From a phage, in assembly GCA_018175075.1 (NCBI GenBank), contig GCA_018175075.1_4100.1: DNA of 64,000 bases. One strand, given 5' to 3'. Below, one piece after another: positions 30,038 through 52,966 of this stretch; the stretch's first letter is position 1; each line of letters opens with the position of its first letter. A model generated the notes under the pieces. That model did not search any database. It saw only the letters and a program-made list of their open reading frames with translations, and was not told the origin of the DNA. The translations under genes and the position numbers were made by a program.

Positions 30038-31228
30038 TTACAATTGTCTAGGTGTATCCAGTACATATCTATTTGTACGAGGACCACCATCATCATGCGT
30101 TCCGGTTGAATATATATTTTTCATATCAGCAGTTAGGAAAGTACGATACGAACCGCGATATATTTTAATTTTATCATACATAGAATATGTTATTCCTGAC
30201 GGCAATGGACATGCAGTAAATTTACCAATGGTAACATTAGAACCAACACCTAATGTACCAGCATAACCACTCGCATTTAAACCAGTTGCATATACACCTG
30301 TACTCGTAACTAGTATACTAGATTGTGATGCATATCCAGTATGGATTGAATAATAAGTTCCTGATGGTAATGTAGTACTATTATTCCCTAATACTGCTAG
30401 TGCTGTACTATTCGTAGTGTTATTACCCCATGCCCCATTATTAGCTAATCCACCAACTAGAAACTGACGTGCTCCTGTATTTGGATTCTCCACTAAAGCA
30501 CTGACAGCACCAAATGAACAAACAGTATATTGTAATGTTTTTGTATATGTGGTACTTGGCTTATACAAAGTATATTCATTAAATGGTGTCCATGTGGTAC
30601 TAGTACTTATGCCAGATGTACTACCACCAATATATAAATTATTTTGTGTATCAAAAAACATTGCACAGTAATTTGTTGACTGTATTTGTGCAATATCTAC
30701 ATCTGGTGTTACCGCTTTAACAAATGAACCATCTGATATTTGATAAGTAGTTCCTGTACCATCTGCGAATTGTCTAGCACTATTCCACCCTGTACTCCAT
30801 ATTGTATTATTATCCATTAAGAAAGTAAACCACGTAGTACCTGCATACATCTGTTTAATTGAAGTACTTGAACTTTGTGTGTACAAATTTTCAATATATT
30901 GGTTATAACTTAAAAATGATGTAGTACTAGTTTCTAAACCAATATGACTACCATATCCACAATAAAAATAATTTAAGTCATTATCTTGTACTAACAAAGT
31001 TCCTTGTGTCATCCAGCAATCTTTGACATTTTCTCTAATTAATGTCCACGACCTTACTGCATTATTATTTCCTCTACCAAACTTCCCATAACTATTACTG
31101 CCTCGTGCGTATAGTTGACCGTCGGTATAAAGTACAACAACCTCAGTATCAGTTGGTATTATTTTCTTAATTTGTAGTGGTACAGGCACAATATTCCCAT
31201 AATTCATCATTCTTGCAAAAGGTAACAT
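30038..31228 (-). CDS. RCC1-like beta-propeller repeat protein G8
   Basis: 396 aa, MLPFARMMNYGNIVP. Confidence 0.75.
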   Translation of the reverse strand: MLPFARMMNYGNIVPVPLQIKKIIPTDTEVVVLYTDGQLYARGSNSYGKFGRGNNNAVRSWTLIRENVKDCWMTQGTLLVQDNDLNYFYCGYGSHIGLETSTTSFLSYNQYIENLYTQSSSTSIKQMYAGTTWFTFLMDNNTIWSTGWNSARQFADGTGTTYQISDGSFVKAVTPDVDIAQIQSTNYCAMFFDTQNNLYIGGSTSGISTSTTWTPFNEYTLYKPSTTYTKTLQYTVCSFGAVSALVENPNTGARQFLVGGLANNGAWGNNTTNSTALAVLGNNSTTLPSGTYYSIHTGYASQSSILVTSTGVYATGLNASGYAGTLGVGSNVTIGKFTACPLPSGITYSMYDKIKIYRGSYRTFLTADMKNIYSTGTHDDGGPRTNRYVLDTPRQL

Positions 31229-31299
31229 AATTCCCCTCCTTATTCATTATACTATATTTAATACAAATAAGAAAGCCAGTATCAAGTACTGGCCTATAT
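31229..31299 (-). promoter_or_regulatory. array cassette: terminator hairpin, -10, SD
   Basis: hairpin 31275-31293. Confidence 0.5.
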
Positions 31300-32469
31300 T
31301 TAAACTGGCGAATCTAATATAAATTCTAAACTACTAATGCCACCATATGTGACATCTGTTCCCGTGCTATATACAAAATTACCATCAGTTATATAAGTTC
31401 GGTTATAACTACCTGCCATCTGTGACTTACTATAATCAAACCCATCAGGTACGATTGCTTTGGTATATACTAATGCATTAGTAGATGTACCAATACCTAA
31501 CATACCAGCTTGTGTAGATTGATTGTAGCCGCAACAATATATACCATCTGTTGTAGCAATAACTTGGTTATAATATGAAGTATTGTTAGCAATGCTTACT
31601 ACATCACCAGGTGGCATTAGTGATGCTGTTTGTACCTCAAATGCTCTATAATCTTTGAGAGAACCATCTTTCCCATCTGCTTGTGCACCAAATATTCTTG
31701 AACCACCATTTGCGATGATAGTTTTACCAGTGGGATCAGTGCCTATTGCCATTGCCATTGAAGTACCATTATTCACATAGTACTTTATATTAATTGTATT
31801 ACTTAAGCTGGTAGGAGCACCATAATATATATTATATAACTTACTTCCTGAACTTGTAACTGCATTGACTCTTCCTGTATAAAATAACCATCCTTGGTTT
31901 GTAACATAACCGTGCATTAAATTACTTGCAAACAATTTAACAGGTAATTGATTTGCTGCGGTAGGAACAGTACTTTTGACGAATCTACCAGAAACATGGT
32001 TAATTGTTGTCCCATCACCCAACTGACCATCCGACCCTACTCCAGTACTCCATATTGTTTGGTCTGATAGTAACACACTTGTAGTCTGATAACTAACGGC
32101 TATATCTAATATTGGTAATGTTAATGTATTGAATATAGGCATAGCAGATGTCCATATTGATACTCCTGACCCTTTCATACCAACAGTTGTTGAACTTCCA
32201 CTGTACCATATTTCATTATTGCTTTTCTTAACAACTATCGACGTGGCACCCATCCAAAAATCTTCAACACCAGAAGTACTAAAAGTCCATGTAGTAACAG
32301 TATTTTTGTGACCTAAACCCAAAATACCATATGCATTATCACCACGCACATATAAATCACCACTGTTTGTTAAAACAGCAACATTATAGTTGTTAGCAAG
32401 TATTTTTTTAATATTTGGTTTATCAGGTGCAATATTCCCGTACTTAAACATCCTCGCAAAAGGTAACAT
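31300..32469 (-). CDS. RCC1-like beta-propeller repeat protein G9
   Basis: 389 aa, MLPFARMFKYGNIAPD; motifs GQLGDG, GMLGIG. Confidence 0.75.
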   Translation of the reverse strand: MLPFARMFKYGNIAPDKPNIKKILANNYNVAVLTNSGDLYVRGDNAYGILGLGHKNTVTTWTFSTSGVEDFWMGATSIVVKKSNNEIWYSGSSTTVGMKGSGVSIWTSAMPIFNTLTLPILDIAVSYQTTSVLLSDQTIWSTGVGSDGQLGDGTTINHVSGRFVKSTVPTAANQLPVKLFASNLMHGYVTNQGWLFYTGRVNAVTSSGSKLYNIYYGAPTSLSNTINIKYYVNNGTSMAMAIGTDPTGKTIIANGGSRIFGAQADGKDGSLKDYRAFEVQTASLMPPGDVVSIANNTSYYNQVIATTDGIYCCGYNQSTQAGMLGIGTSTNALVYTKAIVPDGFDYSKSQMAGSYNRTYITDGNFVYSTGTDVTYGGISSLEFILDSPV

Positions 32470-32538
32470 ATTTCCTCCTTATTCATTATACTATATTTAA
32501 TACAAATAAGAATGCCAGTATCAAGTACTGGCATTATG
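32470..32538 (-). promoter_or_regulatory. array cassette: terminator hairpin, -10, SD
   Basis: hairpin 32514-32532. Confidence 0.5.
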
Positions 32539-33648
32539 TTATTTTGGTAAATCAATTTTAGTAAAGACTGCAACATCTGCACTTGCACCTGGAATGGCGT
32601 AATACGATCCAGTACTATATACATTCCCGTCTTTGGTTAATAATGATGTTAATCCGTCACTAAAAGCAACATCACTAATCTCACTAACTTCTACAGGTAA
32701 TTGTAAATTAGCAGCACTATAGATAGCACCCGTTTGAGAATTGTTTAATCCCAAACCACGGTTTCCCCCAATACCTTTCTGATATGCACTAGTTAATATA
32801 ATTTGCGTAGCCGTGCTTGTTGCCTCTGAATTTGTCATAAACAAAGGTGAATTATTAGGTAAAGTACTTACAGGAACTGCTTTGAATGTAGTTGAATCTG
32901 AACTAAGAAAGTTTGGAGTTGTACCACATGTGAAATATGATGTACCATTATAGTAATTGAGTGTATGTCCACCAATAGCTGCATCTATTACACCAGAACT
33001 ACGCAGTCCCCAAATGTTAACTTGTGTTCTGTTCCCTGTGCCATGTAATCCACGGTCATTCCACCCTGAACTATATAACTTATTATCTATGCTAATATAC
33101 ATACTATCATTAGGAGTAGACATAACTTTACGCACATTAGAAGCACATAGTGTTAATGTATATATTGATGAAGAACCAATCCCCAATACACCACGGTATC
33201 CATTAGCCCCAGCACCATAGAGTACTGAACTTGAACTTAGTACAAATATTACACCACTATTGCATACAATATTAGCAATTTGATTCACTGGTATTGTATT
33301 TGTAAACCACTCGGTTCTATCAACTAATGTAGTACTGTAAGAAGTAGTTGTAGAAGATGTGAACCAGTACGTTTGACCTGATGTCCATATCGTATTATCA
33401 TTTTTAATAATAACAAGTGTTCGTCCTCCAGTGAAAAAATTAGAAACATCTGCACTTACTAATATCCATGAAGATACCGTGTTGGTATTACCATTTCCAG
33501 ATTCACCACCTTGATTTCTGCCTATGTAATACAATTCATGTGAATCAGTCAATACGAATTGACCTTGAGTAGAAGCACCAACTTTAATTATATTTTTAGG
33601 ACCAGAGGTAATATTCCCATAATCAAATAGTCTTACAAAAGGTAACAT
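32539..33648 (-). CDS. RCC1-like beta-propeller repeat protein G10
   Basis: MLPFVRLFDYGNI; RBS only, no cassette (co-transcribed with G11). Confidence 0.7.
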   Translation of the reverse strand: MLPFVRLFDYGNITSGPKNIIKVGASTQGQFVLTDSHELYYIGRNQGGESGNGNTNTVSSWILVSADVSNFFTGGRTLVIIKNDNTIWTSGQTYWFTSSTTTSYSTTLVDRTEWFTNTIPVNQIANIVCNSGVIFVLSSSSVLYGAGANGYRGVLGIGSSSIYTLTLCASNVRKVMSTPNDSMYISIDNKLYSSGWNDRGLHGTGNRTQVNIWGLRSSGVIDAAIGGHTLNYYNGTSYFTCGTTPNFLSSDSTTFKAVPVSTLPNNSPLFMTNSEATSTATQIILTSAYQKGIGGNRGLGLNNSQTGAIYSAANLQLPVEVSEISDVAFSDGLTSLLTKDGNVYSTGSYYAIPGASADVAVFTKIDLPK

Positions 33649-33656
33649 ATTCCCTC

Positions 33657-34859
33657 CTATTGTTGCCATAACTGCGTTGGCATTAATGTTAGTGTAGTAA
33701 TACTATAAGTGCCATCAGGCAATCTACCACCATTACCATTCCAGCCACCACATGCATATAATTTATAATCTTTAGTAATTATTATGGTTCTGCTCCAATC
33801 TTTAGATGCCATAAGAACATTGTCATAACCACCACTTATTGCACTAAGATTAAAAATAGCCCAAGTCTTAACTAATGTATTAGTTCCATTACCTTCTTGA
33901 CCATATGAGTTAGGACCACTACTTCTAACATATGGTGCGTATTGTGCCATAGGTGAACCAATTGATGCATTTCCCATATTACTTGGACAAATAAAATTAC
34001 TGTACTTACTTACATCAACCGTGACCGATGTATTCCTAATTGGTGTTAGCTGATTTACTGATGTAGTCGTACCATTACCAGCTTGTCCAGTATTGTTAGA
34101 CCCACTATAATATACAGGCCCACCAGTAGTAAACCACCAAGTAACATTGTATGTAGTACTAATATGTTCTACATTACTAATCACGAATTTGTTCAAATAT
34201 ACAACAGAACTACCACCACATCCACTTTCACCAAAGTTATCCTTACCACAAAACCATGCATCTTTATTTGATTTAATATAGTGCGTTCCTTGTAATGAAC
34301 ATGCCATATCTATAACTTCACCCATATTAGTCATAACTGTTAGTGTAGGGATTGAATTTTGATTACCCGACCCACATTCACCATTAGTATTTTTTCCACA
34401 CGCAATTACTCTACCATCTGTTAATAATATTCTAGTACTTTCACCTATATATACACTCTTGATCATATTAGCCATTACGCCAATTTTATTAAATGAAGCA
34501 GTAACATCAGTCCATGTTCTCAAATAACCACTAACAGGTGTTGCATCTCCATAATCAGAAAATGCACCCACCGACCCAGTGTAGTATATTTTATTATCCA
34601 AATCAACCATCAATGAACCATGAACACCCAGCCAATAGGCTGCACAGTTACGTGCAAGTACAGTAAATGACGGAACTGCTGCTGAATTCCCAAGACCAAA
34701 TTGAGACATGTTATTACTACCATAACCATATAAAGTATTAGTTGGGCTATGTAGATACATACAGTTTGTATAATGTTGTTGTAAAACATCTGAGAACTCT
34801 ATAGGTTCTGGCCCTGGTGCAATATTACCGTACTTAACCATTCTAGCAAAAGGTAACAT
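33657..34859 (-). CDS. RCC1-like beta-propeller repeat protein G11
   Basis: 400 aa, MLPFARMVKYGNIAPGPEP. Confidence 0.75.
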   Translation of the reverse strand: MLPFARMVKYGNIAPGPEPIEFSDVLQQHYTNCMYLHSPTNTLYGYGSNNMSQFGLGNSAAVPSFTVLARNCAAYWLGVHGSLMVDLDNKIYYTGSVGAFSDYGDATPVSGYLRTWTDVTASFNKIGVMANMIKSVYIGESTRILLTDGRVIACGKNTNGECGSGNQNSIPTLTVMTNMGEVIDMACSLQGTHYIKSNKDAWFCGKDNFGESGCGGSSVVYLNKFVISNVEHISTTYNVTWWFTTGGPVYYSGSNNTGQAGNGTTTSVNQLTPIRNTSVTVDVSKYSNFICPSNMGNASIGSPMAQYAPYVRSSGPNSYGQEGNGTNTLVKTWAIFNLSAISGGYDNVLMASKDWSRTIIITKDYKLYACGGWNGNGGRLPDGTYSITTLTLMPTQLWQQ

Positions 34860-34931
34860 ATTTCCCTCCTTTATTCATTATATTATATTTAATCAAAAAT
34901 AAAAGCCAGTACTTGAGTACTGGCATATCAA
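34860..34931 (-). promoter_or_regulatory. array cassette: terminator hairpin, -10, SD
   Basis: hairpin 34905-34924. Confidence 0.5.
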
Positions 34932-36098
34932 TTACGAAAAACGTGGATCATCAAGAACAAACACGGTACTACTTGGACCACCTTGTGTGGTGACAGCACT
35001 AGTACTGTAAAGAAAGTTACCATCTGTCATATAAGTTCTACGATTCGTACAAATAACTCTTACTTTATTCATATCGATATCAGGATTAGGTAATGGACAT
35101 GAAGTATACACTGATACATCAGTACTTGTTCCTATTCCCAGCGTACCTTCATTTGTGGTTGAACCGCTATTCAACCCACTAGCATATATACCACTGCTTG
35201 TAATAACAAAAGTGGCGTAGAATGGAGAACCTTCACCTATATTTAATTTAGTTCCAGGTGGTTGTCTTGCCGCAGCAACCGCACCATATGCTTTCCCACC
35301 AGATGTGGCAAGATTACCAAGAGCACCATACTGTTGTTGTCCACCATTATACACTGTGTTAGTGCCATCACTGTTAGTGTGGATACCAATAGAATTATAG
35401 TTACTGTTGCTATATACTAAAGCGGCATTAGAAGTAACTGTATTTCGTGTATATACTTTATATTGTTGGGTAAAATTACCACTAGTGGACGTACCCTGTA
35501 CAGTTCCAGTGTAGTATATATATCCGTCTGTACCAATGAATGAGTGCATAACACTACCTGCAAAAATTTTTTCTGGAGTAACACCTGACGGTATTGTTGA
35601 TTGTACAAATCTACCCACTACATTTGTTGTTGTATTATTTCCCAATTGACCGGAGTCACCATAACCACTTGACCATATGGTATTGTTCTCAAGAAGAACA
35701 CTAATTGATAATCTTGATAAAGCTATTTCTTTAACATCACTTTCTAATGTATCAAAAAATGAAGTACAATTTGTCCAAGTGTTCACTACGCTAGAACTAA
35801 CACCAATTTGTTTATTATCACCAGAACTATAATAATTCCCATCATATGTTTGTATAAGTATAACAGAACCACCAACCCATACTTTATCAACTGAACCAAA
35901 CGTTCTTGTCCATGTGGTAACTATATCCCCGCTATTATTACCCAATCCAAAGCAACCACTACTATCTACGCCTCGTACATATAAATCTCCTGAAGTCATC
36001 AGAACTGCACAGAATGATTGTGCACCTTTAACATCTTTAATTGGCTCTGGTTCAGGTGCAACATTTCCATAATCAAACATTCTAACAAAAGGTAACAT
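34932..36098 (-). CDS. RCC1-like beta-propeller repeat protein G12 (first gene of array)
   Basis: MLPFVRMFDYGNVAPEPEP; motif GQLGNN. Confidence 0.75.
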   Translation of the reverse strand: MLPFVRMFDYGNVAPEPEPIKDVKGAQSFCAVLMTSGDLYVRGVDSSGCFGLGNNSGDIVTTWTRTFGSVDKVWVGGSVILIQTYDGNYYSSGDNKQIGVSSSVVNTWTNCTSFFDTLESDVKEIALSRLSISVLLENNTIWSSGYGDSGQLGNNTTTNVVGRFVQSTIPSGVTPEKIFAGSVMHSFIGTDGYIYYTGTVQGTSTSGNFTQQYKVYTRNTVTSNAALVYSNSNYNSIGIHTNSDGTNTVYNGGQQQYGALGNLATSGGKAYGAVAAARQPPGTKLNIGEGSPFYATFVITSSGIYASGLNSGSTTNEGTLGIGTSTDVSVYTSCPLPNPDIDMNKVRVICTNRRTYMTDGNFLYSTSAVTTQGGPSSTVFVLDDPRFS

Positions 36099-36200
36099 AT
36101 TTCCTCCTTTATTCATTATATCATATTTACCCCATAAACAAAACCCTTGACAACCTTCCAGTACTGGTGTACTATAGAAGGAATATAAGGAGAACTACAC
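36099..36200. promoter_or_regulatory. divergent promoter region
   Basis: minus side TATAAT + AAAGGAGG for G12; plus side TTGACA 36147-36152 /17/ TACTAT 36170-36175 ahead of family S. Confidence 0.45.
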
Positions 36201-36428
36201 ATGACAAATACTCTTAAGTACTACATTAATACTCTAAATGAACTAGAGTACGCGAAGTTTCTCGCGGATAGTTCGTGGCTAATTGAGCTAAAAAATTATA
36301 ATAGTCCAGGATGCACCCTTATGATGAACAATGCAATTGATACCCTCATTGTGAGTATTTTACACAGCAACATCTGCGGGGATAGAAACAAACAATTATC
36401 AAAAATCTTAGTACTGCTATCTATATGA
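36201..36428 (+). CDS. small protein, tandem family S (S1)
   Basis: 75 aa, AAGGAG RBS. Confidence 0.5.
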   Translation: MTNTLKYYINTLNELEYAKFLADSSWLIELKNYNSPGCTLMMNNAIDTLIVSILHSNICGDRNKQLSKILVLLSI

Positions 36429-36628
36429 ATATCGAACAGTACTACATCGATGCACTACCAACAAAAGGTCTACGTGAAAGCCTACTGCATACACAAACTA
36501 ATTTCAAACACCTCAAACGTAGCCCTAAACTCCTGAACTCGTACAGGAATAATAACATAAGAAATGCTTTACAAGGGGTAGAATGTATGCAATACTATTA
36601 CATCCTTACCCTATTAATCGAGTACTAA
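36425..36628 (+). CDS. small protein, family S (S2)
   Basis: 67 aa; ATGA overlap. Confidence 0.5.
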   Translation: MNIEQYYIDALPTKGLRESLLHTQTNFKHLKRSPKLLNSYRNNNIRNALQGVECMQYYYILTLLIEY

Positions 36629-36629
36629 T

Positions 36630-36839
36630 ATGAATACTGAACATAAAGAATTCTACACCAAATACCTTAGCAACGAAGAACAATTGTTTCTAAGGAGTGT
36701 ATCACCTGTAAGTACCAATACTCAATTCGGTAGAGATTGCTTTAATAATTGTATACGTAGTACTCTAGAAGCAATCGAATGCAATAACAAAAATATTATG
36801 TACTCAGGTTTAATAGGACTAATATATTTCTATGAATAA
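36630..36839 (+). CDS. small protein, family S (S3)
   Basis: 69 aa; clear paralog of S18. Confidence 0.55.
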   Translation: MNTEHKEFYTKYLSNEEQLFLRSVSPVSTNTQFGRDCFNNCIRSTLEAIECNNKNIMYSGLIGLIYFYE

Positions 36840-37026
36840 TCATAAAGATTTCTATTGTAGTAAACTACCCAAACAAGAACAGCTATCATTCTCTTTAGCA
36901 CCACCTATGAGAAAGGATAATCTGTATTATAATTACGATTTCAGGATGGTGACACGTTATGCAATAGAACATCAGTTCCCTGAAACTAAGTACCGCTCTA
37001 TCCTGAACCTCATCTTTAAGTTCTAA
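36832..37026 (+). CDS. small protein, family S (S4)
   Basis: 64 aa; MNNHKDFY. Confidence 0.5.
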   Translation: MNNHKDFYCSKLPKQEQLSFSLAPPMRKDNLYYNYDFRMVTRYAIEHQFPETKYRSILNLIFKF

Positions 37027-37078
37027 AAGGTACACCAGGGACCGAGTACTTTAATATAGTAAGGCTAATTACATTATA

Positions 37079-37264
37079 ATGAATCATATAAGCTACTACT
37101 ACCAACAACTATCCGACAGAGACAAGTACAGTCACAACTCCCATGTGTGGTACTACAAACGCGGCAGTATAAGAGACAAACAACATTACTTCTGTATTTC
37201 TATTAAAGAAGCACTGACAACTAAGTACACGTACCGAGCAGTACTTAAACTTATTGAAATGTAA
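37079..37264 (+). CDS. small protein, family S (S5)
   Basis: 61 aa; C-terminal VLKLIEM. Confidence 0.5.
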   Translation: MNHISYYYQQLSDRDKYSHNSHVWYYKRGSIRDKQHYFCISIKEALTTKYTYRAVLKLIEM

Positions 37265-37274
37265 AGAGAATACT

Positions 37275-37457
37275 ATGAACATTGAATTGTACTTAAGTAA
37301 ATTACAGCCTGGCGATAGATTCATCTACAATAAGTTCGAATTCAACTACAAGAACGGGAGCAACAAATATCGTCGAGGATACCTATATACAAGCACAAGA
37401 GATGCACAAAACGAAAAGTACACATACAGAGAAGTACTTAAACTAATCTCTATTTGA
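37275..37457 (+). CDS. small protein, family S (S6)
   Basis: ATG 37275; C-terminal VLKLISI. Confidence 0.5.
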   Translation: MNIELYLSKLQPGDRFIYNKFEFNYKNGSNKYRRGYLYTSTRDAQNEKYTYREVLKLISI

Positions 37458-37465
37458 GGTAATAT

Positions 37466-37651
37466 ATGAATACATTTGAGTACTATACCAATAAACTATC
37501 TATGCCTGAAAGATCTCATCTCTATGTGTGGAGAAATGCGTATAAAAGCGGCAATAAACTTATACAAAGAAATTCCCTTACAGTGTGTACAAATTTAATT
37601 AAAGCAGAGTACCGCACATATATTGAAGTACTGAAACTAATCTCTATCTAA
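37466..37651 (+). CDS. small protein, family S (S7)
   Basis: 61 aa; VLKLISI. Confidence 0.5.
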   Translation: MNTFEYYTNKLSMPERSHLYVWRNAYKSGNKLIQRNSLTVCTNLIKAEYRTYIEVLKLISI

Positions 37652-37659
37652 GGTACTCT

Positions 37660-37839
37660 ATGCAAGAATTCTATATCTATAAACTTCAGCACAAAGATAG
37701 ATACAACTATAATAAATTCCAAAGGTACTACACAGTCGGGAACAAAAGAGATAAAAAACGATACTTTCTATCATGTACAGTAGAAGCACAAAACGAAAAG
37801 TACACGTACAGAGAAGTACTGAAACTCATCTCTATGTAA
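37660..37839 (+). CDS. small protein, family S (S8)
   Basis: 59-aa ORF below track cutoff; MQEFYIYKL..VLKLISM. Confidence 0.45.
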   Translation: MQEFYIYKLQHKDRYNYNKFQRYYTVGNKRDKKRYFLSCTVEAQNEKYTYREVLKLISM

Positions 37840-37847
37840 GGAATAAT

Positions 37848-38027
37848 ATGCAAGAATACTATATAGAACACATAAGCATTAAAGACCGTTTCATGTACGA
37901 CACCTTCGTGAAGTACTACAACCTGGCAACTAACAGTACTAAAAATATTAATCTCAATAGCTGCATTCATCACGCACTAACAAAAGATAATCCCTTCAGG
38001 GAAATCCTCGCACTAGCATCTGTATAA
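37848..38027 (+). CDS. small protein, family S (S9)
   Basis: ATG 37848 (MQEYYIEHIS); track start upstream overlaps S8. Confidence 0.5.
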   Translation: MQEYYIEHISIKDRFMYDTFVKYYNLATNSTKNINLNSCIHHALTKDNPFREILALASV

Positions 38028-38037
38028 AGGAAACCAA

Positions 38038-38697
38038 ATGAAACTTAATGCACACAGCAAACAATACCTTAAGCACTTTAAGTACCTCAACAGTATTCAA
38101 GCAGAATCTTTTACACCAGCATATACGTATCACCCAAATGTACTAAAGAAACGAAATAAAAAGAAAAAATCCAGAAATGTTCTCGTATCTAAGAACCTCA
38201 AATCGTACTTGAAGAAAAATAATATAGCTCTTGCTTTTATTAATATCTATAATACTGATTTAAAAGTATTGAGTACTAATACCAGCACAAAAGCACTAAA
38301 GAATGCATCTATCTATATACACATGGATAATATCCCGTGCACTATAATTCTATCTTTCGGGAATGTATACTTCTTCGGGAATTGTAATAGCACCCATGAT
38401 ATCAGTACTGCACAATTCCAAATCGGCGATATGTACTGCATGGGTTCAGAAAAAATACACGATAACATGCACTTCTTCCAAAAGCAACGTACTAACGAAA
38501 CTGATACAGTACTGCAATTCCTCAAAGAACTAGAACACAAAGAATTATCCGAGGAAGAAGAATTCATGTACAGTACTGTAATCGATAATCCAGAACTCTA
38601 TAAAAACGCGTACAAACTAACAAAACATGTACAGGAACTTATCAGTACTGATAAGAAATTTCATCACCTCATTACGTATATTTCAAACTATGTATAA
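38038..38697 (+). CDS. hypothetical protein inside family S array
   Basis: 219 aa, AAGGA RBS; Lys-rich N-terminal part. Confidence 0.55.
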   Translation: MKLNAHSKQYLKHFKYLNSIQAESFTPAYTYHPNVLKKRNKKKKSRNVLVSKNLKSYLKKNNIALAFINIYNTDLKVLSTNTSTKALKNASIYIHMDNIPCTIILSFGNVYFFGNCNSTHDISTAQFQIGDMYCMGSEKIHDNMHFFQKQRTNETDTVLQFLKELEHKELSEEEEFMYSTVIDNPELYKNAYKLTKHVQELISTDKKFHHLITYISNYV

Positions 38698-38872
38698 AGA
38701 ATACTACAAAGATAAAATCCCAATGCATCTACAACACCATATACCAAACGTTGCATTGGGTATCAAAGATCACGCAAAGATAATGTTCCAACAATGTACT
38801 AAGTACACGCTCATATACGATGATAATCCATATATGCTGTACTACGTAGTAATGCTAACATTCAGGTACTAA
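38690..38872 (+). CDS. small protein, family S (S11)
   Basis: MYKEYYKDKIPMHLQ; C-terminal LTFRY. Confidence 0.5.
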   Translation: MYKEYYKDKIPMHLQHHIPNVALGIKDHAKIMFQQCTKYTLIYDDNPYMLYYVVMLTFRY

Positions 38873-38873
38873 T

Positions 38874-39053
38874 ATGAATACTTATAAAGAATTCTACCTC
38901 TCGTACCTTAATTCCGATATAGTAACATCCAATACATTCAGTACTAAAATTATCTATAATGAATTAATGAAAGAATGTATTAAAGGTGCTATTAACCCTA
39001 AAGATACGTATGACTTGTACTATGCAGTACTAACCCTTGTTTTCACGAAATAA
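38874..39053 (+). CDS. small protein, family S (S12)
   Basis: 59-aa ORF below track cutoff; MNTYKEFYLSYL. Confidence 0.45.
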   Translation: MNTYKEFYLSYLNSDIVTSNTFSTKIIYNELMKECIKGAINPKDTYDLYYAVLTLVFTK

Positions 39054-39061
39054 CACATAAT

Positions 39062-39253
39062 ATGAATAACCACAAAGAATACTACATAGAGAAACTCCCA
39101 ATGTATCTCCAACACCTTGTACCAACAGAACCATTGGGTATAGAAAAAAACTACGAAAAAGACTACTTCATTCAGTGCACTAAATCCTCGATATATATTG
39201 AAGACTATAATCGAGTACTGTATCACATCCTTTTACTAATATATAGGTACTAA
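39062..39253 (+). CDS. small protein, family S (S13)
   Basis: MNNHKEYYIEKLPMYLQ..LLIYRY. Confidence 0.5.
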   Translation: MNNHKEYYIEKLPMYLQHLVPTEPLGIEKNYEKDYFIQCTKSSIYIEDYNRVLYHILLLIYRY

Positions 39254-39254
39254 T

Positions 39255-39437
39255 ATGCACAAAGAATACTACACACAATTTCTCCCCAGCATTTTTGAAC
39301 ACTACGCCAGATACAAAGTCCCTATGGATAACGATTTGGCAGTACTGGGATTCAATAACTGCATAGAACGAAGTATAGAAAATAGTAGTAGTTATGACCA
39401 GCTATATAACACTATCCTACTTATATTCAGGTACTAA
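39255..39437 (+). CDS. small protein, family S (S14)
   Basis: MHKEYYTQFLP..LLIFRY. Confidence 0.5.
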   Translation: MHKEYYTQFLPSIFEHYARYKVPMDNDLAVLGFNNCIERSIENSSSYDQLYNTILLIFRY

Positions 39438-39438
39438 T

Positions 39439-39627
39439 ATGCATAAAGAATACTACACAAAATATTTCCCAATGTACCTCAGTACTAATCTATTAGATAA
39501 ACCTCGCGGTATCAATGCACAAAACGATAAAGTGTATTTTACTATGTGTACTAAAGCATGTATACTAGATTTTGACAGCTACCATCGAGTACTGTATCAT
39601 ACCCTGTACCTAGCTTTCGTATTCTAA
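39439..39627 (+). CDS. small protein, family S (S15)
   Basis: ATG 39439 (MHKEYYTKYFPMYL) right after S14 stop. Confidence 0.5.
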   Translation: MHKEYYTKYFPMYLSTNLLDKPRGINAQNDKVYFTMCTKACILDFDSYHRVLYHTLYLAFVF

Positions 39628-39636
39628 AAGAACAAT

Positions 39637-39822
39637 ATGCATAAAGAATTCTACTTAAGCCATCTCGATCTAAACTCCCAAATGCTTATACCACTAATCC
39701 CAATAGATATCAAGGATAAGAAAAATACCGAACAATTCATTTACCATACACAGTGTGCGATCACCCCAAATTACATTCCATATGAATTGTACTACATTAT
39801 CGCCCTAATATATAGGTACTAA
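39637..39822 (+). CDS. small protein, family S (S16)
   Basis: MHKEFYLSHL..LIYRY. Confidence 0.5.
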   Translation: MHKEFYLSHLDLNSQMLIPLIPIDIKDKKNTEQFIYHTQCAITPNYIPYELYYIIALIYRY

Positions 39823-39823
39823 T

Positions 39824-40009
39824 ATGCATAGAGAATACTACACACAATTTGTTAAAGGGAACTACAAACATGCCGTACCCAGAACCCCTTTAAATTCTCA
39901 TGACCCAAGTACTATATTCTTGTTTAATGACGCAATACGTACAGTACTCAATACTAAAGATGAAGATGTGCAGTACGTATTCTTACTATTACTTATATAC
40001 AGACACTAA
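39824..40009 (+). CDS. small protein, family S (S17)
   Basis: MHREYYTQFV..LLIYRH. Confidence 0.5.
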   Translation: MHREYYTQFVKGNYKHAVPRTPLNSHDPSTIFLFNDAIRTVLNTKDEDVQYVFLLLLIYRH

Positions 40010-40014
40010 CTAAT

Positions 40015-40224
40015 ATGAATAAAGAACATAAAGAATTCTACTCCAAATACATAAGCCCCTCAGAACAAATGTTTCTAAGAACTACTCCACCTTTAAGTAC
40101 TAATACATTTTTCGGCAGAGTATGCTACAATAATTGTATTCAAATGACTTTAAACGCAAACGAAGATGGTAACAGTACTAACCTGTACTCAGGTATCATA
40201 GGTATACTATTCCTGTATGAATAA
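40015..40224 (+). CDS. small protein, family S (S18)
   Basis: MNKEHKEFYSKY..; paralog of S3. Confidence 0.55.
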   Translation: MNKEHKEFYSKYISPSEQMFLRTTPPLSTNTFFGRVCYNNCIQMTLNANEDGNSTNLYSGIIGILFLYE

Positions 40225-40408
40225 TTACAAAGACTTCTATTTGAATACACTACCTACTGTACTTTCTCTAAGTGCTCAATGTAAAATCCCGCTGGATAAT
40301 GCTTACGCCAGATATAGCTATTCCATAACTGTTAATCGATGTATAGAGAATCATTGCAGTACTAACACTAGTACTATCATATTAATTAATAGAGAATACT
40401 ATGTATAA
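40217..40408 (+). CDS. small protein, family S (S19)
   Basis: MNNYKDFYLNTLP. Confidence 0.5.
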   Translation: MNNYKDFYLNTLPTVLSLSAQCKIPLDNAYARYSYSITVNRCIENHCSTNTSTIILINREYYV

Positions 40409-40592
40409 AAACTTCTATATAAGTAAACTAAAAGAAAATGAACAAGTATGGATTAGATCTATAATTCCACTGGCATTTAATAGATATGCATTTAACAGAT
40501 GTACCGAGATTGCTATAGACCCTTATAATATTAAAGAGAATGTACAGTATAATCAGTACTACTATATCTTAATGCTTATATATAGAAAGTAA
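40401..40592 (+). CDS. small protein, family S (S20)
   Basis: MYKNFYISKL..LMLIYRK. Confidence 0.5.
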   Translation: MYKNFYISKLKENEQVWIRSIIPLAFNRYAFNRCTEIAIDPYNIKENVQYNQYYYILMLIYRK

Positions 40593-41003
40593 TTAAACAC
40601 ATAGAGACAGGGGAAGCTCCTAGTGAACAACCTTTATGTACAGGCGAATTGTTAAAATTCAGCCTGGACAAATGCGATCACTAGGATTCTCCCCAGGCTA
40701 AACCCCGTAATCATAGGTAGTCATAAGTAATCATATATAAACATTTATATGAGCACCGTAGAATCACAGAATGATTATATATGATTCAGTACTGATTAGT
40801 ATAGACAAGATTGCTCAAGAATGCACGGAAATGTGTGTGAATGATTCAGTACTGATATCCCACTAAGTAGGCAGAGGAAGTCTGCCGTACTTTGTAGTTT
40901 CCAAGCTCCTTTTCCATTTTGCAAATTACATCAAATGTAATCAAAAGTAATCACACAATGATTAGTACTGAATTATTACTTTCACCTTAATTACAATTAC
41001 CCT

Positions 41004-41023
41004 TTTACCCTTCGGGGTAAAAT
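41004..41023 (+). other. perfect 8-bp hairpin with UUCG tetraloop in noncoding island
   Basis: TTTTACCC-TTCG-GGGTAAAA. Confidence 0.4.
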
Positions 41024-41230
41024 TCCATTACCCCTTGAGGCTCCAGCAAAAAGTTGGTTAGTACTCCATCCTAAATCTCGATCCTAAAAATTTTGGAGTA
41101 CCTATGAAATAAAAGTTGGATCTTCGAAAGTTGAAATTTACGTTGGGACGTTTATGATTTGTGGGATATAATGATGTTTGTAGTCGGGTAGTTCTCAAGA
41201 ATATCAGTACTGAATGATGAAAGAAAGCTA

Positions 41231-41385
41231 TTGACTTTATGATTCAGTACTGTATAATGTTTTACATAGAGAGATGAGTTGCCGCAAACAATTCATTCAC
41301 TCTACTTCCTGTCGTGAGACAGTACAGAAAGATAGTTCCTCCTATGGGTGGTACATCTTTTAGAACCTCTTTTTTCGTAATATGA
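41231..41385 (+). ncRNA. candidate small transcript: promoter TTGACT/16/TATAAT, no ORF of 60 aa or more, T-run at 41371-41376
   Basis: TTGACT 41231-41236, TATAAT 41253-41258; only a 29-codon ORF downstream. Confidence 0.25.
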
Positions 41386-41441
41386 ACAGTACTGATATTA
41401 ACAGAATGGTGTCAGTACTGATTTTAATTTAATGCATTATG

Positions 41442-41461
41442 CCACCAGCACAAGCTGGTGG
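41442..41461. repeat. inverted Chi-octamer hairpin
   Basis: CCACCAGC-ACAA-GCTGGTGG. Confidence 0.5.
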
Positions 41462-41587
41462 ATTCCCTCTAACAGTATTCAGTACTACATGATGGTCTTC
41501 ATCCTCCTAGGGTAACATAGTGAGGGCTATGATGGCAGTACTGAATACTCCCTTTCAAAAGATAGATCTATGGTATAGTACTGACGG

Positions 41588-41775
41588 ATTTTGGGCGTAG
41601 TTACCCTGGATGGATTTTGGGCGTAGATATGTCTAGCCCTCCAGAAGTCTGGAAGTAAAGATGGCTATCCATCTAGACGGCTAAACGGCTAGATTTCTGG
41701 ATGGCTGGATGGCTAGACGTTTGGACGGCTAAACGGCTAGATGGTTACACGTCTGGAAGTATAGACGGCTAAATC
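41588..41775. repeat. iteron-like direct repeats
   Basis: ATTTTGGGCGTAG x2; GACGGCTAAACGGCTAGAT x2 (41676-41694, 41724-41742); GTCTGGAAGTA x2; reiterated GGCTA/GATGG units. Confidence 0.5.
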
Positions 41776-41994
41776 AAAATTTTATTTTGTTTTTTCCAAT
41801 AGTTCCCCTACCGCGTGGGGATAGTTTCCCCGCAGTATCTGGTGTTAGATTTTTCTGAATCTGGAATCATTATCTTATAAACTGGGGGCAATGTCAACGG
41901 CCTGGACGGATATTTTTAAAAATTTTTTCAGTACTGAATTTTGGGCGTAACTATGCACCCGGTGGGCTGGAGTCTTTCTCGACTTGATGGAACT

Positions 41995-42022
41995 ATTATA
42001 CAGTACTGGAAAAATAAAGCAA
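41995..42022 (-). promoter_or_regulatory. minus-strand promoter TTGCTT/16/TATAAT
   Basis: read as reverse complement. Confidence 0.35.
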
Positions 42023-42209
42023 TACCCTGGATGAAAAAAGTTTTAATTAATTTGCTTGCCATCCTGGGCCGGACTATGGTACTATAATTCAGTACTGAGA
42101 AAGTGCGTTAACCTGCTAGGGTGCGGGAGTGTATCCTTTTTTTATATCTTGAATTTTGGGCGTAATTCCGCACCCTCTGGGGTTTCCGCTTTCTCGCGTC
42201 TATGTAGTA

Positions 42210-42237
42210 ATTATACGCTTTTTCAGGATCAAGTCAA
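42210..42237 (-). promoter_or_regulatory. minus-strand promoter TTGACT/16/TATAAT
   Basis: read as reverse complement. Confidence 0.35.
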
Positions 42238-42390
42238 TACCTAAAAACAAATAATTGAAAATAATTTAACGCGTTTAAACGGCCCGTAACGCCCTGGAAT
42301 GATTAGAATGGTGCAAATGTATAGCTTAGGTGTATTAATGCGTTAGAATGCGTCTGAGGCCGTTTTATGGGGTGTAGTAGTGATTTGGTT

Positions 42391-42480
42391 GATTCAGTAC
42401 TGAATAATAGTACTCCTATATAGAAAGATAGTTCCCCTGGATTGATTCAGTACTGAATAATAGTACTCCTATATAGAAAG
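42391..42480. repeat. tandem direct repeat, 37-bp unit at 53-bp period
   Basis: GATTCAGTACTGAATAATAGTACTCCTATATAGAAAG at 42391-42427 and 42444-42480. Confidence 0.6.
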
Positions 42481-42512
42481 AAAACTATTTTAAAAGTACA
42501 TGTAGAAAGTAC

Positions 42513-42571
42513 TTGCACCGTACTGATAAAAGCGTATAATGTTTTACATCGAGAGCGGGAACACTTCCCGC
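42513..42571 (+). promoter_or_regulatory. A-type promoter/stem-loop cassette
   Basis: TTGCAC/16/TATAAT + GCGGGAA-CAC-TTCCCGC. Confidence 0.55.
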
Positions 42572-42586
42572 TACACTTTAAAAGAG

Positions 42587-42958
42587 ATGAAAACGATGGC
42601 GACTCAAATCAATAAAATCATGCTTAACCTGGTAAACTTCCGCGATGAGATGAAAGGTCTTCCGGCTGAAACTGTAAAAATTCACATTGCAGCTTATCGG
42701 GAACTTATTGCAATGTTGCCGCTTAAGCGTGAACAATACGCCGCTACTTTGATGCTGGATTCAATGATCCATGTAATGATCTCAAATGATTTAACGATGG
42801 TTTATCAGTACATGGGAGAAAATTTCGCGGTGTGTAGTAAGCCAGTACCAGGGATGGCAACTACTGAGGAATTGCACGGTTTAAATTTAAAGCAAGATGC
42901 ATGGGATAATATGCCTCGTTTCCTGGTATGGGCTGACAGTGGCAAAATTTACAAATAA
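42587..42958 (+). CDS. hypothetical protein
   Basis: ATG 42587 after the stem-loop; track start 42539 is the ATG inside the -10 box. Confidence 0.55.
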   Translation: MKTMATQINKIMLNLVNFRDEMKGLPAETVKIHIAAYRELIAMLPLKREQYAATLMLDSMIHVMISNDLTMVYQYMGENFAVCSKPVPGMATTEELHGLNLKQDAWDNMPRFLVWADSGKIYK

Positions 42959-42972
42959 GTTTAATAAAGTAC

Positions 42973-43031
42973 TTGCAAACTATGTTTAATGGCGTATAAT
43001 GTTTTACATCAGGTGGGGAATAGTTCCCCAC
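42973..43031 (+). promoter_or_regulatory. A-type promoter/stem-loop cassette
   Basis: TTGCAA/16/TATAAT + GGGGAA-TAG-TTCCCC. Confidence 0.55.
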
Positions 43032-45967: not shown

Positions 45968-46153
45968 ATGACAACATTATCTGAGGTTATCCGCGTTCAA
46001 GCTGCAAAGGCTGGAATGACTGTTATCAATGTAGGGATCAAGATTGAGATCTCCCCTAACGAGTTGCAAGGGATTCCCGATCCTACTAGCTGGGATCGTG
46101 CTGGGCGAATGATGCGTAATGCTTCATTACTGGACGGTACAAAATTTAATTAA
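45968..46153 (+). CDS. hypothetical protein
   Basis: 61 aa; CAGGAG RBS. Confidence 0.45.
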   Translation: MTTLSEVIRVQAAKAGMTVINVGIKIEISPNELQGIPDPTSWDRAGRMMRNASLLDGTKFN

Positions 46154-46160
46154 AAAGTAC

Positions 46161-46219
46161 TTGCAATTAGTTTTTAGTACTGTATAATGGTTTACATCAA
46201 AGGGAGAAATGGTTCTCCC
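46161..46219 (+). promoter_or_regulatory. A-type promoter/stem-loop cassette
   Basis: TTGCAA/16/TATAAT + GGGAGAAATGGTTCTCCC. Confidence 0.55.
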
Positions 46220-46238
46220 TGGTAATGAGGAAAATAAA

Positions 46239-46460
46239 ATGGCTAATATCACTACTCTTTCCCAACTGGAAGCACTGGTTAAATCTATGCGGGAACATGC
46301 CGACAAAATCGGCGTACAAGATCCAGCCGTTTGCTTCTGCGACGAAATGAATGATGATACACTGGTAATAGCAGAAGTCCAGGACGTTTCTAACTATTCC
46401 TCGCGTTACACTGGCGGCGTAGCAAATAAAGGTGACTTCTGTTTATACCTTACAAAATAA
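46239..46460 (+). CDS. hypothetical protein
   Basis: 73 aa, GAGGA RBS. Confidence 0.55.
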   Translation: MANITTLSQLEALVKSMREHADKIGVQDPAVCFCDEMNDDTLVIAEVQDVSNYSSRYTGGVANKGDFCLYLTK

Positions 46461-48341: not shown

Positions 48342-48494
48342 TGTTTATCGTTTACCAGGCCACCAGCACCGCCTAGAAACGATTCTAACGTATTAAACTG
48401 TTTATCTGATGCATTGCCCTAGCTGGTGGCGTTAAAGTCGTTAGAATGCGATTGAGTGCGTTTAAAGTATTTTGCAAAAAGTAATAAAAAGTAC

Positions 48495-48555
48495 TTGCAC
48501 GATTAAGAGATTAGCGTATAATGTTTTACATCGAGAGGGGGAAACGGTTCTCCTT
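48495..48555 (+). promoter_or_regulatory. A-type promoter/stem-loop cassette
   Basis: TTGCAC/16/TATAAT + degenerate GGGGGAAAC..stem. Confidence 0.5.
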
Positions 48556-48577
48556 CCAAATCAAAGGAATCAAAACA

Positions 48578-48805
48578 ATGGCTATTATCATTACTCGCGT
48601 ATCTGGTACTACTGGCAACGAACAAGTAGTTGCAGTCATTACCAACAAGGAAGGTGCGGAATTGCAAAATGCAATGAATACCTGGGCCGTTAATGAGTTC
48701 GGTCAGTGGGCAAGTGTAGCATACATTGAAACCTATCAAGTGCCGTCGATTAGTTTAACTGATTTGGGCGTTGAGCGTATCCTTTGCCTTGATGAATTAA
48801 ATTAA
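48578..48805 (+). CDS. hypothetical protein
   Basis: ATG 48578 after cassette; 75 aa. Confidence 0.55.
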   Translation: MAIIITRVSGTTGNEQVVAVITNKEGAELQNAMNTWAVNEFGQWASVAYIETYQVPSISLTDLGVERILCLDELN

Positions 48806-50698: not shown

Positions 50699-50845
50699 AT
50701 GAAAGCATCAAAAAAGAGTACTAACAAGAAAGCACGTTCAACCTTAGATGGGGTATTCCCTTTACGTTTCGTTGATGAAGTGGTTTCCTACCCGCCTGGC
50801 CTTACTCCTGAGATGGTAGAAAGTTTGCGTAAATCTAAAAAATAG
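50699..50845 (+). CDS. small basic protein
   Basis: 48-aa ORF below track cutoff; AAGGAA RBS. Confidence 0.4.
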   Translation: MKASKKSTNKKARSTLDGVFPLRFVDEVVSYPPGLTPEMVESLRKSKK

Positions 50846-50848
50846 TAC

Positions 50849-50908
50849 TTGCAATTAGTTTTTAGTACTGTATAATGTTTTACATGAAGGGGAGAAATGA
50901 TTCTCCCC
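50849..50908 (+). promoter_or_regulatory. A-type promoter/stem-loop cassette
   Basis: TTGCAA/16/TATAAT + GGGGAGAAATGATTCTCCCC. Confidence 0.55.
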
Positions 50909-50926
50909 AATAACAGGAGAAACAAA

Positions 50927-51079
50927 ATGAAACAATACAACGCTCGGTTTGATGTTACTATCGGTAACGGCAAAGGTCAATTCTCTTTCAGTACTCGCCG
51001 CAGTTATACAGAAAACTTCCTGCGTAATTGTGCACTGACCGCCGCACAAATTAAACATTACTTTCAGGCTAAAAAATGA
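50927..51079 (+). CDS. small hypothetical protein
   Basis: 50 aa from ATG 50927 with CAGGAG RBS. Confidence 0.45.
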   Translation: MKQYNARFDVTIGNGKGQFSFSTRRSYTENFLRNCALTAAQIKHYFQAKK

Positions 51080-51869: not shown

Positions 51870-51929
51870 TTGACAATAGATTATAGTACTGTATAATAGT
51901 TTACATCAAGGGGAGAAATGATTCTCCCC
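51870..51929 (+). promoter_or_regulatory. C-type promoter/stem-loop cassette
   Basis: TTGACA/16/TATAAT + GGGGAGAAATGATTCTCCCC. Confidence 0.55.
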
Positions 51930-51949
51930 ACTAACAGAGAGAAAACAAA

Positions 51950-52162
51950 ATGGCTAATATCTGCACTGTACTGAAAAATGCAAAACAAGTTTTATTTTCT
52001 GATCACGATCATTTAAACAAGGATATTACTGGCGTTCGGAATATCAAAGATGTAAAAAGTGTTATGGGTATCTATTGCAATATGAAACGTGTTGGAACGT
52101 TCGGCGACAAAGTACTATACCAGGCAGGGGATTACAATTTTACACTGACTATCATTAACTAA
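51950..52162 (+). CDS. hypothetical protein
   Basis: 70 aa. Confidence 0.55.
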   Translation: MANICTVLKNAKQVLFSDHDHLNKDITGVRNIKDVKSVMGIYCNMKRVGTFGDKVLYQAGDYNFTLTIIN

Positions 52163-52181
52163 AAATATTATCACAGTACTA

Positions 52182-52210
52182 TTGACATAGTTTGATAGTA
52201 CTGACATAAT
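52182..52210 (+). promoter_or_regulatory. B-type promoter cassette
   Basis: TTGACA/17/CATAAT. Confidence 0.55.
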
Positions 52211-52245
52211 AACTTTTATCAACTACACTACTAAGGAATTAAAAA

Positions 52246-52425: not shown

Positions 52426-52443
52426 AATATATTACCAGTACTA

Positions 52444-52471
52444 TTGACAACGTTTGATAGTACTGTATAAT
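52444..52471 (+). promoter_or_regulatory. B-type promoter cassette variant
   Basis: TTGACA/16/TATAAT. Confidence 0.5.
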
Positions 52472-52515
52472 AAGTTTTATAAACAGTAGTTAACTTAACC
52501 TAAGAGAGAAATAAA

Positions 52516-52659: not shown

Positions 52660-52666
52660 TATTATA

Positions 52667-52962: not shown

Positions 52963-52966
52963 TCTA

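Follow-up and report, generated by a model that had tools for sequence, protein, structure and literature searches.

In this study, positions 36201–40592 of a 64,000-nucleotide stretch of phage DNA (GenBank assembly GCA_018175075.1, contig GCA_018175075.1_4100.1), called the window below, were analysed. The plus strand of this interval was filled by 20 head-to-tail open reading frames (ORFs), S1–S20: 19 small ones of 59–75 aa and one of 219 aa (S10). The array consisted of 17 solid paralogs, two probable ones (S1 and S2) and one unrelated gene (S10). The ORFs were coding and under moderate purifying selection, and the number of copies differed between phages. The array is tentatively read as a lineage-specific, dispensable and early-type multigene family, the products of which would be soluble binding modules for host or competitor targets.

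Family membership and predicted fold

All-against-all BLASTP of the small ORFs gave two subfamilies: A (S5–S9, tail ..YTYREVLKLISI) and B (S3, S4 and S11–S20, tails ..LIYRY or ..FLYE). With leave-one-out hidden Markov models (HMMs), 17 of the 19 small ORFs scored 20–64 bits, and the real score was reached by none of 1000 composition-matched shuffles. Conservation beyond chance, the check that an earlier note on this DNA had proposed, was thus found. The scores of S1 and S2 were equalled by 7 and 4 of 1000 shuffles, respectively, and the S1 and S2 groups matched subfamily B in hhalign with E-values of 0.035 and 0.0036. Subfamilies A and B matched each other weakly (hhalign E 0.0031), collinear across 52 columns. 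Because of the common size and position, the shared end motifs and the weak collinear profile matches, subfamilies A and B and S2 are probably one family; membership of S1 is plausible but unproven. The description of twenty tandem paralogs in the earlier note therefore stood for 17 ORFs, was marginal for S1 and S2, and did not hold for the 219-aa gene (hhalign E 0.19).

The shared N-terminal motif that had been pointed out was real in the form [KE][ED][YF]Y..L, with one Tyr invariant across 44 orthogroups. The central motif (as F..C[TI]) and the hydrophobic subfamily tails were likewise confirmed in the family alignment. S3 and S18, described before as close paralogs, were 59% identical in protein and 74% identical in DNA over 246 nt. 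An HMM built on the window copies alone found 14–22 copies per array in 12 related phages. It also recovered the arrays of Turkey5 and JNE01, in which the copies were only 24–59% identical to any window copy, and it found no further family copy elsewhere in the 64-kb window.

The structure of S13 was predicted by AlphaFold2 from a 28-sequence alignment, following the structure check suggested earlier, with a pLDDT of 90.2 and a pTM of 0.74. The model had helices at residues 3–9, 14–17, 30–45 and 49–62. The family fold is confidently predicted to be a small helical bundle, in which a short N-terminal helix is followed by a variable loop and then by a helical hairpin at the C-terminus. No informative structural neighbour of the S13 model was found. 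Conserved columns (44 orthogroups, 70% identity) fell in helix 1 (E6, Y/F7, invariant Y8 and L12), helix 3 (F36, C39, T/I40, A43 and L/I44) and helix 4 (Y53, Y54, I/V56, L57, L59 and I60). The conserved set formed periodic hydrophobic columns, and the other positions, residues 13–35 above all, were highly variable. This pattern suggests that the core is conserved and the surfaces are variable.

S10 is, by profile comparison, not a paralog of the small family and belongs to a PHROG of its own (Table 1). The C-terminus of S10 was considered as the family ancestor and rejected, a weak HMM match (3.3 bits) finding no confirmation in the profile–profile comparison. S10 was present in every array and is a conserved occupant of the locus. 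It was divergent, with 36% identity to JNE01 and 28.6% to its EJP2 homolog. No Pfam domain was detected in S10, and AlphaFold2 with 20 homologs gave no usable model (pLDDT 36.6).

Distribution, selection and copy-number change

The 4.4-kb array stretch matched 34 phage records at 80–99% identity, all of them 310–386-kb Escherichia or Salmonella jumbo phages of the genus Asteriusvirus. The nearest records were SP27 (98.9%), JP4 (98.4%), SHEFM2K (97.7%), and PBECO4 and 121Q (about 92.5%). The window is from an Asteriusvirus jumbo phage of the PBECO4/121Q/SP27 group. A word-indexed search of 5.8 billion proteins gave 44 matches, all of 49–77 aa. When 1.84 billion cluster representatives were searched exhaustively by profile, 32 matches at E ≤ 1e-3 were obtained. 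Thirty-one of them were 41–69 aa long, almost all full length, and 39–100% identical to a fetched Asteriusvirus array copy; the weakest, a 523-aa protein (E 9.4e-4), had no real similarity to array copies and was rejected. With S13 and S8 as queries, tblastn matched 36 phage records only, all of Escherichia or Salmonella phages, and every matched record with a classification among the taxonomy lines inspected was Asteriusvirus. An IMG/VR scan returned 121Q itself only, a scan by locus being impractical with so variable an alignment of the whole family. Judging from these searches, the family is restricted to the genus Asteriusvirus.

Pfam, NCBIfam, PADLOC and the PDB sequence profile gave no match or chance-level matches only, and no named homolog of the family was found in Pfam, NCBIfam, PADLOC, PDB or BFVD, which agreed with the earlier remark that the family was not recognised. 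PHROG 11711 was matched end to end by 12 small ORFs out of 19 (profile positions 1–62 of 62, best E 6e-28), and each of the 12 belonged to subfamily B. This PHROG was built from PBECO4-type proteins, is listed with function unknown, and has no functional, structural or evolutionary description attached; its cover of the family is partial, S1, S2 and S5–S9 giving no match. In all deposited genomes inspected, the array genes were labelled "hypothetical protein" only or were uncalled. The array was described in none of the literature found, the papers on phAPEC6, Sharanji, fEgEco12, UE-S1 and CBB and a jumbo-phage overview being silent on it.

The ratio of nonsynonymous to synonymous substitution rates (dN/dS) was taken from close orthologs, since deep comparisons were saturated. 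The pooled ortholog dN/dS across phages was 0.34. By region, it was 0.25 in the first 12 codons, 0.38 in the centre and 0.34 in the last 14 codons, with uniform dS; the neighbouring genes had similar values (0.24–0.48). A dN/dS of 0.34 with uniform dS indicated that the array ORFs are genuinely coding and that purifying selection acts on them moderately. Among the close orthologs, neither the pooled nor the regional values gave a sign of positive selection. The term "diversifying family" used in the earlier note was thus borne out in part: the paralogs were strongly diverged off the core and varied in copy number, but a trace of positive selection was missing. Reading frames were intact in 10 of 12 arrays. 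In TH47 and CMSTMSU, several array copies were split or truncated; both records are flagged UNVERIFIED, so these breaks may be sequencing errors and not pseudogenes.

Copy number, whose comparison among relatives had also been proposed, differed even between near-identical phages. In the ortholog map, S6–S8 were absent from PBECO4, 121Q, SD-15_S21 and UE-S1, and S18 and S19 were present in some relatives and absent in others. Two units of relatives, x3 and x1, were absent from the window, x1 being present in most relatives. Compared with SHEFM2K, the array differed by two indels of exactly one gene each, the flanks of which overlapped by 29 nt and 36 nt (Table 1). The unit missing at the 3′ end of S8 was 196 bp long and was carried by SHEFM2K, SP27 and BF17. 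Unit-length indels with overlapping flanks at conserved gene ends are a signature of unequal homologous recombination. Chimeras were found in metagenomic sequences: P0001 consisted of an S13 body and an S15 tail, and P0003 of an S11 head and an S13 body. Among paralogs, identical residues used the same codon at a frequency of 0.70 (0.55 expected) at the N-termini of subfamily B and 0.59 (0.40 expected) at the C-termini of subfamily A, with 0.49 (0.45 expected) in the centre, a pattern consistent with gene conversion at gene ends. Against JNE01, the genes just downstream were 82–100% identical in protein and the array copies 24–59%. The locus is a hypervariable island; mosaic replacement could give the same picture.

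EJP2 is classified as Asteriusvirus, and its flanks were 77–86% identical in DNA. At the syntenic site it had a single gene, encoding a 230-aa distant S10 homolog (OQ411014.1, 335687–336379; E 3e-8). No family member was found at this site, the best HMM match (E 0.028) lying at an unrelated place, and tblastn with S13 or S8 gave no match in the EJP2 genome. Because the EJP2 site is empty of the family, the array would be an expansion around S10 that took place in only part of the genus and can be dispensed with, and it appears accessory rather than essential.

Gene layout, promoters and neighbouring DNA

Four program-called starts (S6, S9, S11 and S15) were moved downstream because an internal ATG restored the family N-terminus, and the corrected starts matched the SHEFM2K and SP27 annotation. 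With these corrections, the earlier count of nineteen ORFs of 59–75 aa plus one of 219 aa, tightly packed, was retained. Overlaps of 4 nt or 8 nt were found at S1/S2, S3/S4, S10/S11, S18/S19 and S19/S20. The remaining junctions were spacers of 1–10 nt, with a single longer one of 52 nt before S5, and the TAATATG form of stop and start already noticed was present at five junctions. A strong Shine–Dalgarno sequence was found in the array at S1 only. Several genes used AGG, the Arg codon in the ..R-Y-stop tail of the preceding gene (AGG TAC TAA T ATG). The tail-borne AGG sites and the tight junctions suggest that the array genes are translated by coupling.

The small proteins were Tyr-rich (11.2% against a background of 5.5%) and poor in Gly, Ala and Val. 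GC skew at 36001–40000 was negative (−0.13 to −0.23) despite the plus-strand genes, opposite to all other plus-strand blocks in the window, because of the family composition, with few Gly/Ala/Val/Asp/Glu codons and many Tyr/Asn/His/Thr codons. No structured RNA was found in the array or the downstream gap, Rfam giving no match at gathering score and one chance-level match (E 0.0046).

The promoter P1 ahead of S1 was a member of the abundant CAGTACTG-box class of this phage. The composite motif TTGAC(A/T)-N6-12-GTACT(G/A)-(0–2 nt)-NANNNT, in which the last part is a −10-like hexamer, occurred at 19 sites in the window (17 on the plus strand) against 0.09 in shuffles. The P1 pattern was matched in 9 of 11 related loci, and a similar promoter preceded the single gene at the EJP2 site. 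The candidate internal promoter, also a full match to the composite motif, overlapped the S15 codons that specify FDSYHRVLYH and lay 37 nt 5′ of S16; it was kept in 121Q, SP27, BF17 and PBECO4. The class form TTGACA-N9-10-(C/T)AGTACTG-TATAAT/CATAAT was seen, for example, at 4279, 15711, 36147, 41231, 43995, 49055 and 51870–60984 on the plus strand and at 44167 and 46595 on the minus strand. The 10-mer palindrome TCAGTACTGA occurred 16 times (0.09 expected), concentrated at 40.8–46.5 kb, and might serve within early promoters as an operator or a recognition box.

In the related phage CBB, RpoD-like promoters cluster among short hypothetical genes, which were interpreted as early host-takeover genes (PMC5259590). 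In PA5oct, a related jumbo phage, transcription depends on host RNA polymerase (PMC7318152). No array protein was among the 62 virion proteins of phAPEC6, the table of which jumps from gp347 to gp549; this set includes a 4.66-kDa protein, though small proteins can be missed (PMC7247149). No Asteriusvirus transcriptome was found in the literature. Early, non-structural expression of the array is the best inference, because of the sigma-70-type promoter, the CBB and PA5oct parallels and the absence from the phAPEC6 virion list.

Table 1. Coordinates of the array genes, promoters and recombination joints in the window
Feature	Position	Strand	Remarks
P1, sigma-70-type promoter, TTGACA-17-TACTAT with palindromic CCAGTACTGG box in spacer	36147..36175	+	26 nt 5′ of S1
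AAGGAG Shine–Dalgarno of S1	36187..36192	+	read from sequence
S1, 75 aa, marginal/divergent member	36201..36428	+	leave-one-out 7.0 bits; ortholog dN/dS 0.38
S2, 67 aa, probable divergent member, ATGA overlap with S1	36425..36628	+	leave-one-out 10.7 bits
S3, 69 aa, subfamily B, ..GLIYFYE tail	36630..36839	+	leave-one-out 63.7 bits; phrog_11711 E 1.7e-12
S4, 64 aa, subfamily B	36832..37026	+	leave-one-out 35.0 bits
S5, 61 aa, subfamily A, basic, ..YTYRAVLKLIEM tail	37079..37264	+	leave-one-out 29.0 bits; pI 9.4
S6, 60 aa, subfamily A	37275..37457	+	leave-one-out 33.1 bits; start moved from TTG at 37254
S7, 61 aa, subfamily A	37466..37651	+	leave-one-out 27.1 bits
S8, 59 aa, subfamily A	37660..37839	+	leave-one-out 40.0 bits
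S9, 59 aa, subfamily A	37848..38027	+	leave-one-out 27.4 bits; start moved from 37773
S10, 219 aa, embedded non-member	38038..38697	+	phrog_29152 E 7e-115
S11, 60 aa, subfamily B	38690..38872	+	leave-one-out 33.0 bits; start moved from 38627
S12, 59 aa, subfamily B	38874..39053	+	leave-one-out 28.9 bits
S13, 63 aa, subfamily B, modelled member	39062..39253	+	leave-one-out 61.7 bits; phrog_11711 E 6e-28
S14, 60 aa, subfamily B	39255..39437	+	leave-one-out 41.3 bits
S15, 62 aa, subfamily B	39439..39627	+	leave-one-out 31.0 bits; start moved from 39394
Candidate internal promoter, TTGACA-17-TATCAT with GAGTACTG box	39572..39600	+	11/12 consensus match
S16, 61 aa, subfamily B	39637..39822	+	leave-one-out 30.9 bits
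S17, 61 aa, subfamily B	39824..40009	+	leave-one-out 21.1 bits
S18, 69 aa, subfamily B, S3 paralog	40015..40224	+	leave-one-out 48.9 bits
S19, 63 aa, subfamily B, aberrant C-terminus ..LINREYYV	40217..40408	+	leave-one-out 20.4 bits
S20, 63 aa, subfamily B, final array gene	40401..40592	+	leave-one-out 43.5 bits
Recombination joint 1, 29 nt, conserved 3′ end of S8	37813..37841	+	aligns both sides of absent 196-bp unit
Recombination joint 2, 36-nt overlap	40342..40377	+	flanks one-gene unit x1 absent here

A 2-kb ORF-poor gap lay 3′ of the array (40593–42538) and was kept even in EJP2 (77% identity). It contained eight or more CAGTACTG boxes and convergent near-consensus promoters, and about 15 tandem 8-mers (A/G)GA(C/T)GGCT at 41643–41770. 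Four "ATTTTGGGCGTA" boxes and a direct repeat of 53 bp (42389/42442) were also present, whereas neither a tRNA nor an Rfam family was found. The gap might function as an origin or a regulatory hub, or it might encode a non-coding RNA. On the minus strand, divergent from the array, thirteen tandem RCC1-like paralogs of about 245–410 aa occupied 21924–36116. For the copy adjoining the array (34932–36116), the phage records contained no ortholog of more than 51% identity, the surrounding genome being 93–99% identical to relatives; since this copy has no close ortholog, the RCC1-like array is hypervariable too. Co-variation of copy number between the RCC1-like and small arrays could not be read from tblastn, the counts being unreliable because the RCC1-like paralogs were too divergent.

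Further along the plus strand, a second tandem family at 62387–63873 consisted of seven ORFs of 65–75 aa that shared a conserved ..GTN.QE.YV.. motif and overlapped at stop and start by 4 nt, or by 11 nt at the final junction. It was compared with the small family as a possible relative and rejected (hhalign E 0.11). A repeated element, TTGACTTCGGTCAGCC(C)TTT..TAT(A/T)AT, was seen on the plus strand at 6052, 9292, 10054, 12985, 17901, 51314, 55309, 58577 and 60841. Its −35-like hexamer lies within a GAC-TTCG-GTC hairpin, and the element may act as terminator and promoter in one, or it may constitute another class of promoter. Mutually similar short ORFs were located at 42861–43031, 46127–46306, 50788–50973, 54273–54683 and 60530–60697 on the minus strand and at 48472–48693, 54869–55144 and 58577–59002 on the plus strand. 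These dispersed ORFs at 42–61 kb are probably repeated intergenic or promoter-bearing DNA, not real genes.

Possible functions and comparison with known systems

In the proposed mechanism, host RNA polymerase would co-transcribe the array copies from P1, and possibly also from the promoter inside S15, and the copies would be translated largely by coupling. The conserved core and ends, together with differing loop and helix surfaces, would provide the phage with a range of proteins that are alike in scaffold but differ in surface. Homologous recombination between the conserved gene ends would lead to gain, loss and shuffling of whole units. The small proteins would bind or neutralise variable host or competitor-phage targets early, in host takeover or counter-defence. 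Early timing, translation, binding activity and target class are the parts of this mechanism that we infer. "Small binding modules", one of the roles raised in the earlier note, was kept as the most plausible reading because the family is unrecognised and genus-restricted, its copies diverge off a helical core, its copy number varies and its locus is hypervariable. A more far-reaching form of this reading, rather unlikely on present evidence, is a "gene accordion", in which the conserved ends would serve as recombination handles for duplicating, deleting and reshuffling entire units as well as heads, bodies or tails of genes, and the phage population would hold a repertoire of helical binders of a previously undescribed fold, each neutralising a different host defence or protein variant. 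Such an accordion would be the equivalent, in a virus of bacteria, of the multigene families of African swine fever virus and poxviruses. Copy numbers of 14–22 in the 12 arrays and 0 in EJP2, the unit indels with 29-nt and 36-nt overlaps, and the chimeric copies are traits of an accordion; positive selection against a host factor, another such trait, was not seen among close orthologs, with dN/dS of 0.25–0.38 in all gene regions.

Some features of the array would agree with other functions. Subfamily A is strongly basic (pI 9.4–9.6 except S9, net charge +4.5 to +6.6; pI 5.3 to 9.4 in subfamily B) with K/R-rich loops, and the many copies of a palindromic promoter box in the region would require proteins that read them. 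The proteins might thus be small nucleic-acid-binding or regulatory proteins, from a lineage-specific expansion of transcription factors or DNA/RNA-coating proteins; jumbo phages offer a precedent in the zinc-ribbon expansion of Bacillus phage G, for which such roles have been proposed (PMC7824862), and this function is considered unlikely. They might also be chaperones, adaptors or regulators of the 13 adjacent RCC1-like proteins, different ones per paralog, as the two paralog arrays adjoin, both are hypervariable, and eight RCC1-like proteins are virion components of phAPEC6 (PMC7247149). However, the two arrays are on opposite strands and unequal in copy number (13 versus 19), the small array has an early-type sigma-70 promoter whereas the minus-strand RCC1-like genes lack the composite motif, and EJP2 retains about 15 RCC1-like genes with no small array, which makes such a partnership quite unlikely. 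Near-neutral inflation and deflation through recombination-prone ends, with copies of little or no specific function, would account for the dispensability in EJP2, the freely changing copy number, the broken copies in the UNVERIFIED TH47 and CMSTMSU records, and the fairly relaxed constraint, core genes typically showing dN/dS far lower than 0.34. Such an evolutionary by-product is nevertheless distinctly improbable: dN/dS stays clearly under 1 in each of the three parts of the gene, most arrays have intact frames, a well-defined fold appears to be kept across copies only 20–30% identical, and phage genomes are under packaging-size pressure.

T4-type internal proteins likewise come from small hyperplastic loci and have a shared N-terminal decapeptide with variable bodies, and the decapeptide of S12 (MNTYKEFYLS) seems to resemble the T4 capsid-targeting sequence MKTYQEFIAE. 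An unassigned capsid inner body is present in phAPEC6 (PMC7247149). Packaged internal proteins that are injected with the DNA and share a capsid-targeting N-terminus would, however, be expected in the virion, where none was detected in phAPEC6; in addition, the array promoter is early-type and not late, the N-terminal helix is integral to the confidently modelled fold, and no conserved protease site (L/I-x-E) follows the N-terminal segment. This origin is very improbable. The earlier note had also suggested immunity or exclusion, and the hydrophobic C-terminal tail (..LLLIYRY, ..VLKLISI) could be read as that of membrane-acting superinfection-exclusion or immunity proteins. Such proteins are typically membrane-bound, but the tail here is about 12–14 residues long and is predicted to pack as a helix in the bundle. 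No transmembrane-like stretch was found in the small proteins (maximum 19-residue Kyte–Doolittle mean 1.18), and their polar N-termini had no signal peptide or lipobox. A membrane function is therefore extremely improbable.

Unannotated small early genes abound in jumbo phages and are a source of many counter-defence and host-takeover factors. Tandem paralog arrays and small-protein expansions in jumbo phages are already known (PMC7247149, PMC7824862), as is part of this family as an unannotated PHROG; the array stands out by its copy number, clean recombination signatures, natural null allele and confident fold without neighbours. It provides one foldable scaffold of about 60 aa in about 19 divergent copies per genome, with at least 44 sequence types in the genus and natural variants of 0 to 22 copies. 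Should the copies prove to bind host targets, the array would supply a natural library of small inhibitors and a clean phage case of "accordion" evolution. If they do not, the array would still show jumbo genome inflation by tandem duplication.

The early host-takeover clusters of SPO1 (gp37–60), T5 (pre-early genes) and Kayvirus (terminal-repeat genes) are likewise dense runs of very short ORFs with no assigned function behind strong sigma-70-type promoters, absent from virions and variable between relatives. The CBB_390–546 cluster is of the same kind (PMC5259590). Short ORFs behind a host sigma-70-type promoter were present here by consensus match. Unlike this array, which is one family amplified about 19-fold, those clusters contain mostly unrelated genes. 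In UE-S1, the array was at 114 kb of a 358-kb record, the start of which relative to the physical end is unstated, and 8.3-kb terminal repeats were reported in the UE-S1 paper. The array seems to lie outside any terminal repeat. Anti-CRISPR-type loci are marked by an adjacent helix-turn-helix regulator (Aca); no helix-turn-helix gene adjoined the array, S10 being without a Pfam domain and unmodelled.

The MGF110/360/505 families of African swine fever virus and the K3L amplification of poxviruses likewise show tandem paralogs, strain-variable number, recombination between repeats, post-duplication divergence and dispensability in some strains. Those families belong to viruses of eukaryotes and have demonstrated roles in host range or in evading interferon, unlike the array here, the units of which are about 190 bp. 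The zinc ribbon of Bacillus phage G (about 35 copies) is likewise a small-protein family expanded in a single jumbo-phage lineage, with a conjectured function (PMC7824862). The phage G family is a zinc ribbon, whereas the array here is predicted to encode an all-helical bundle and forms one contiguous, operon-like array.

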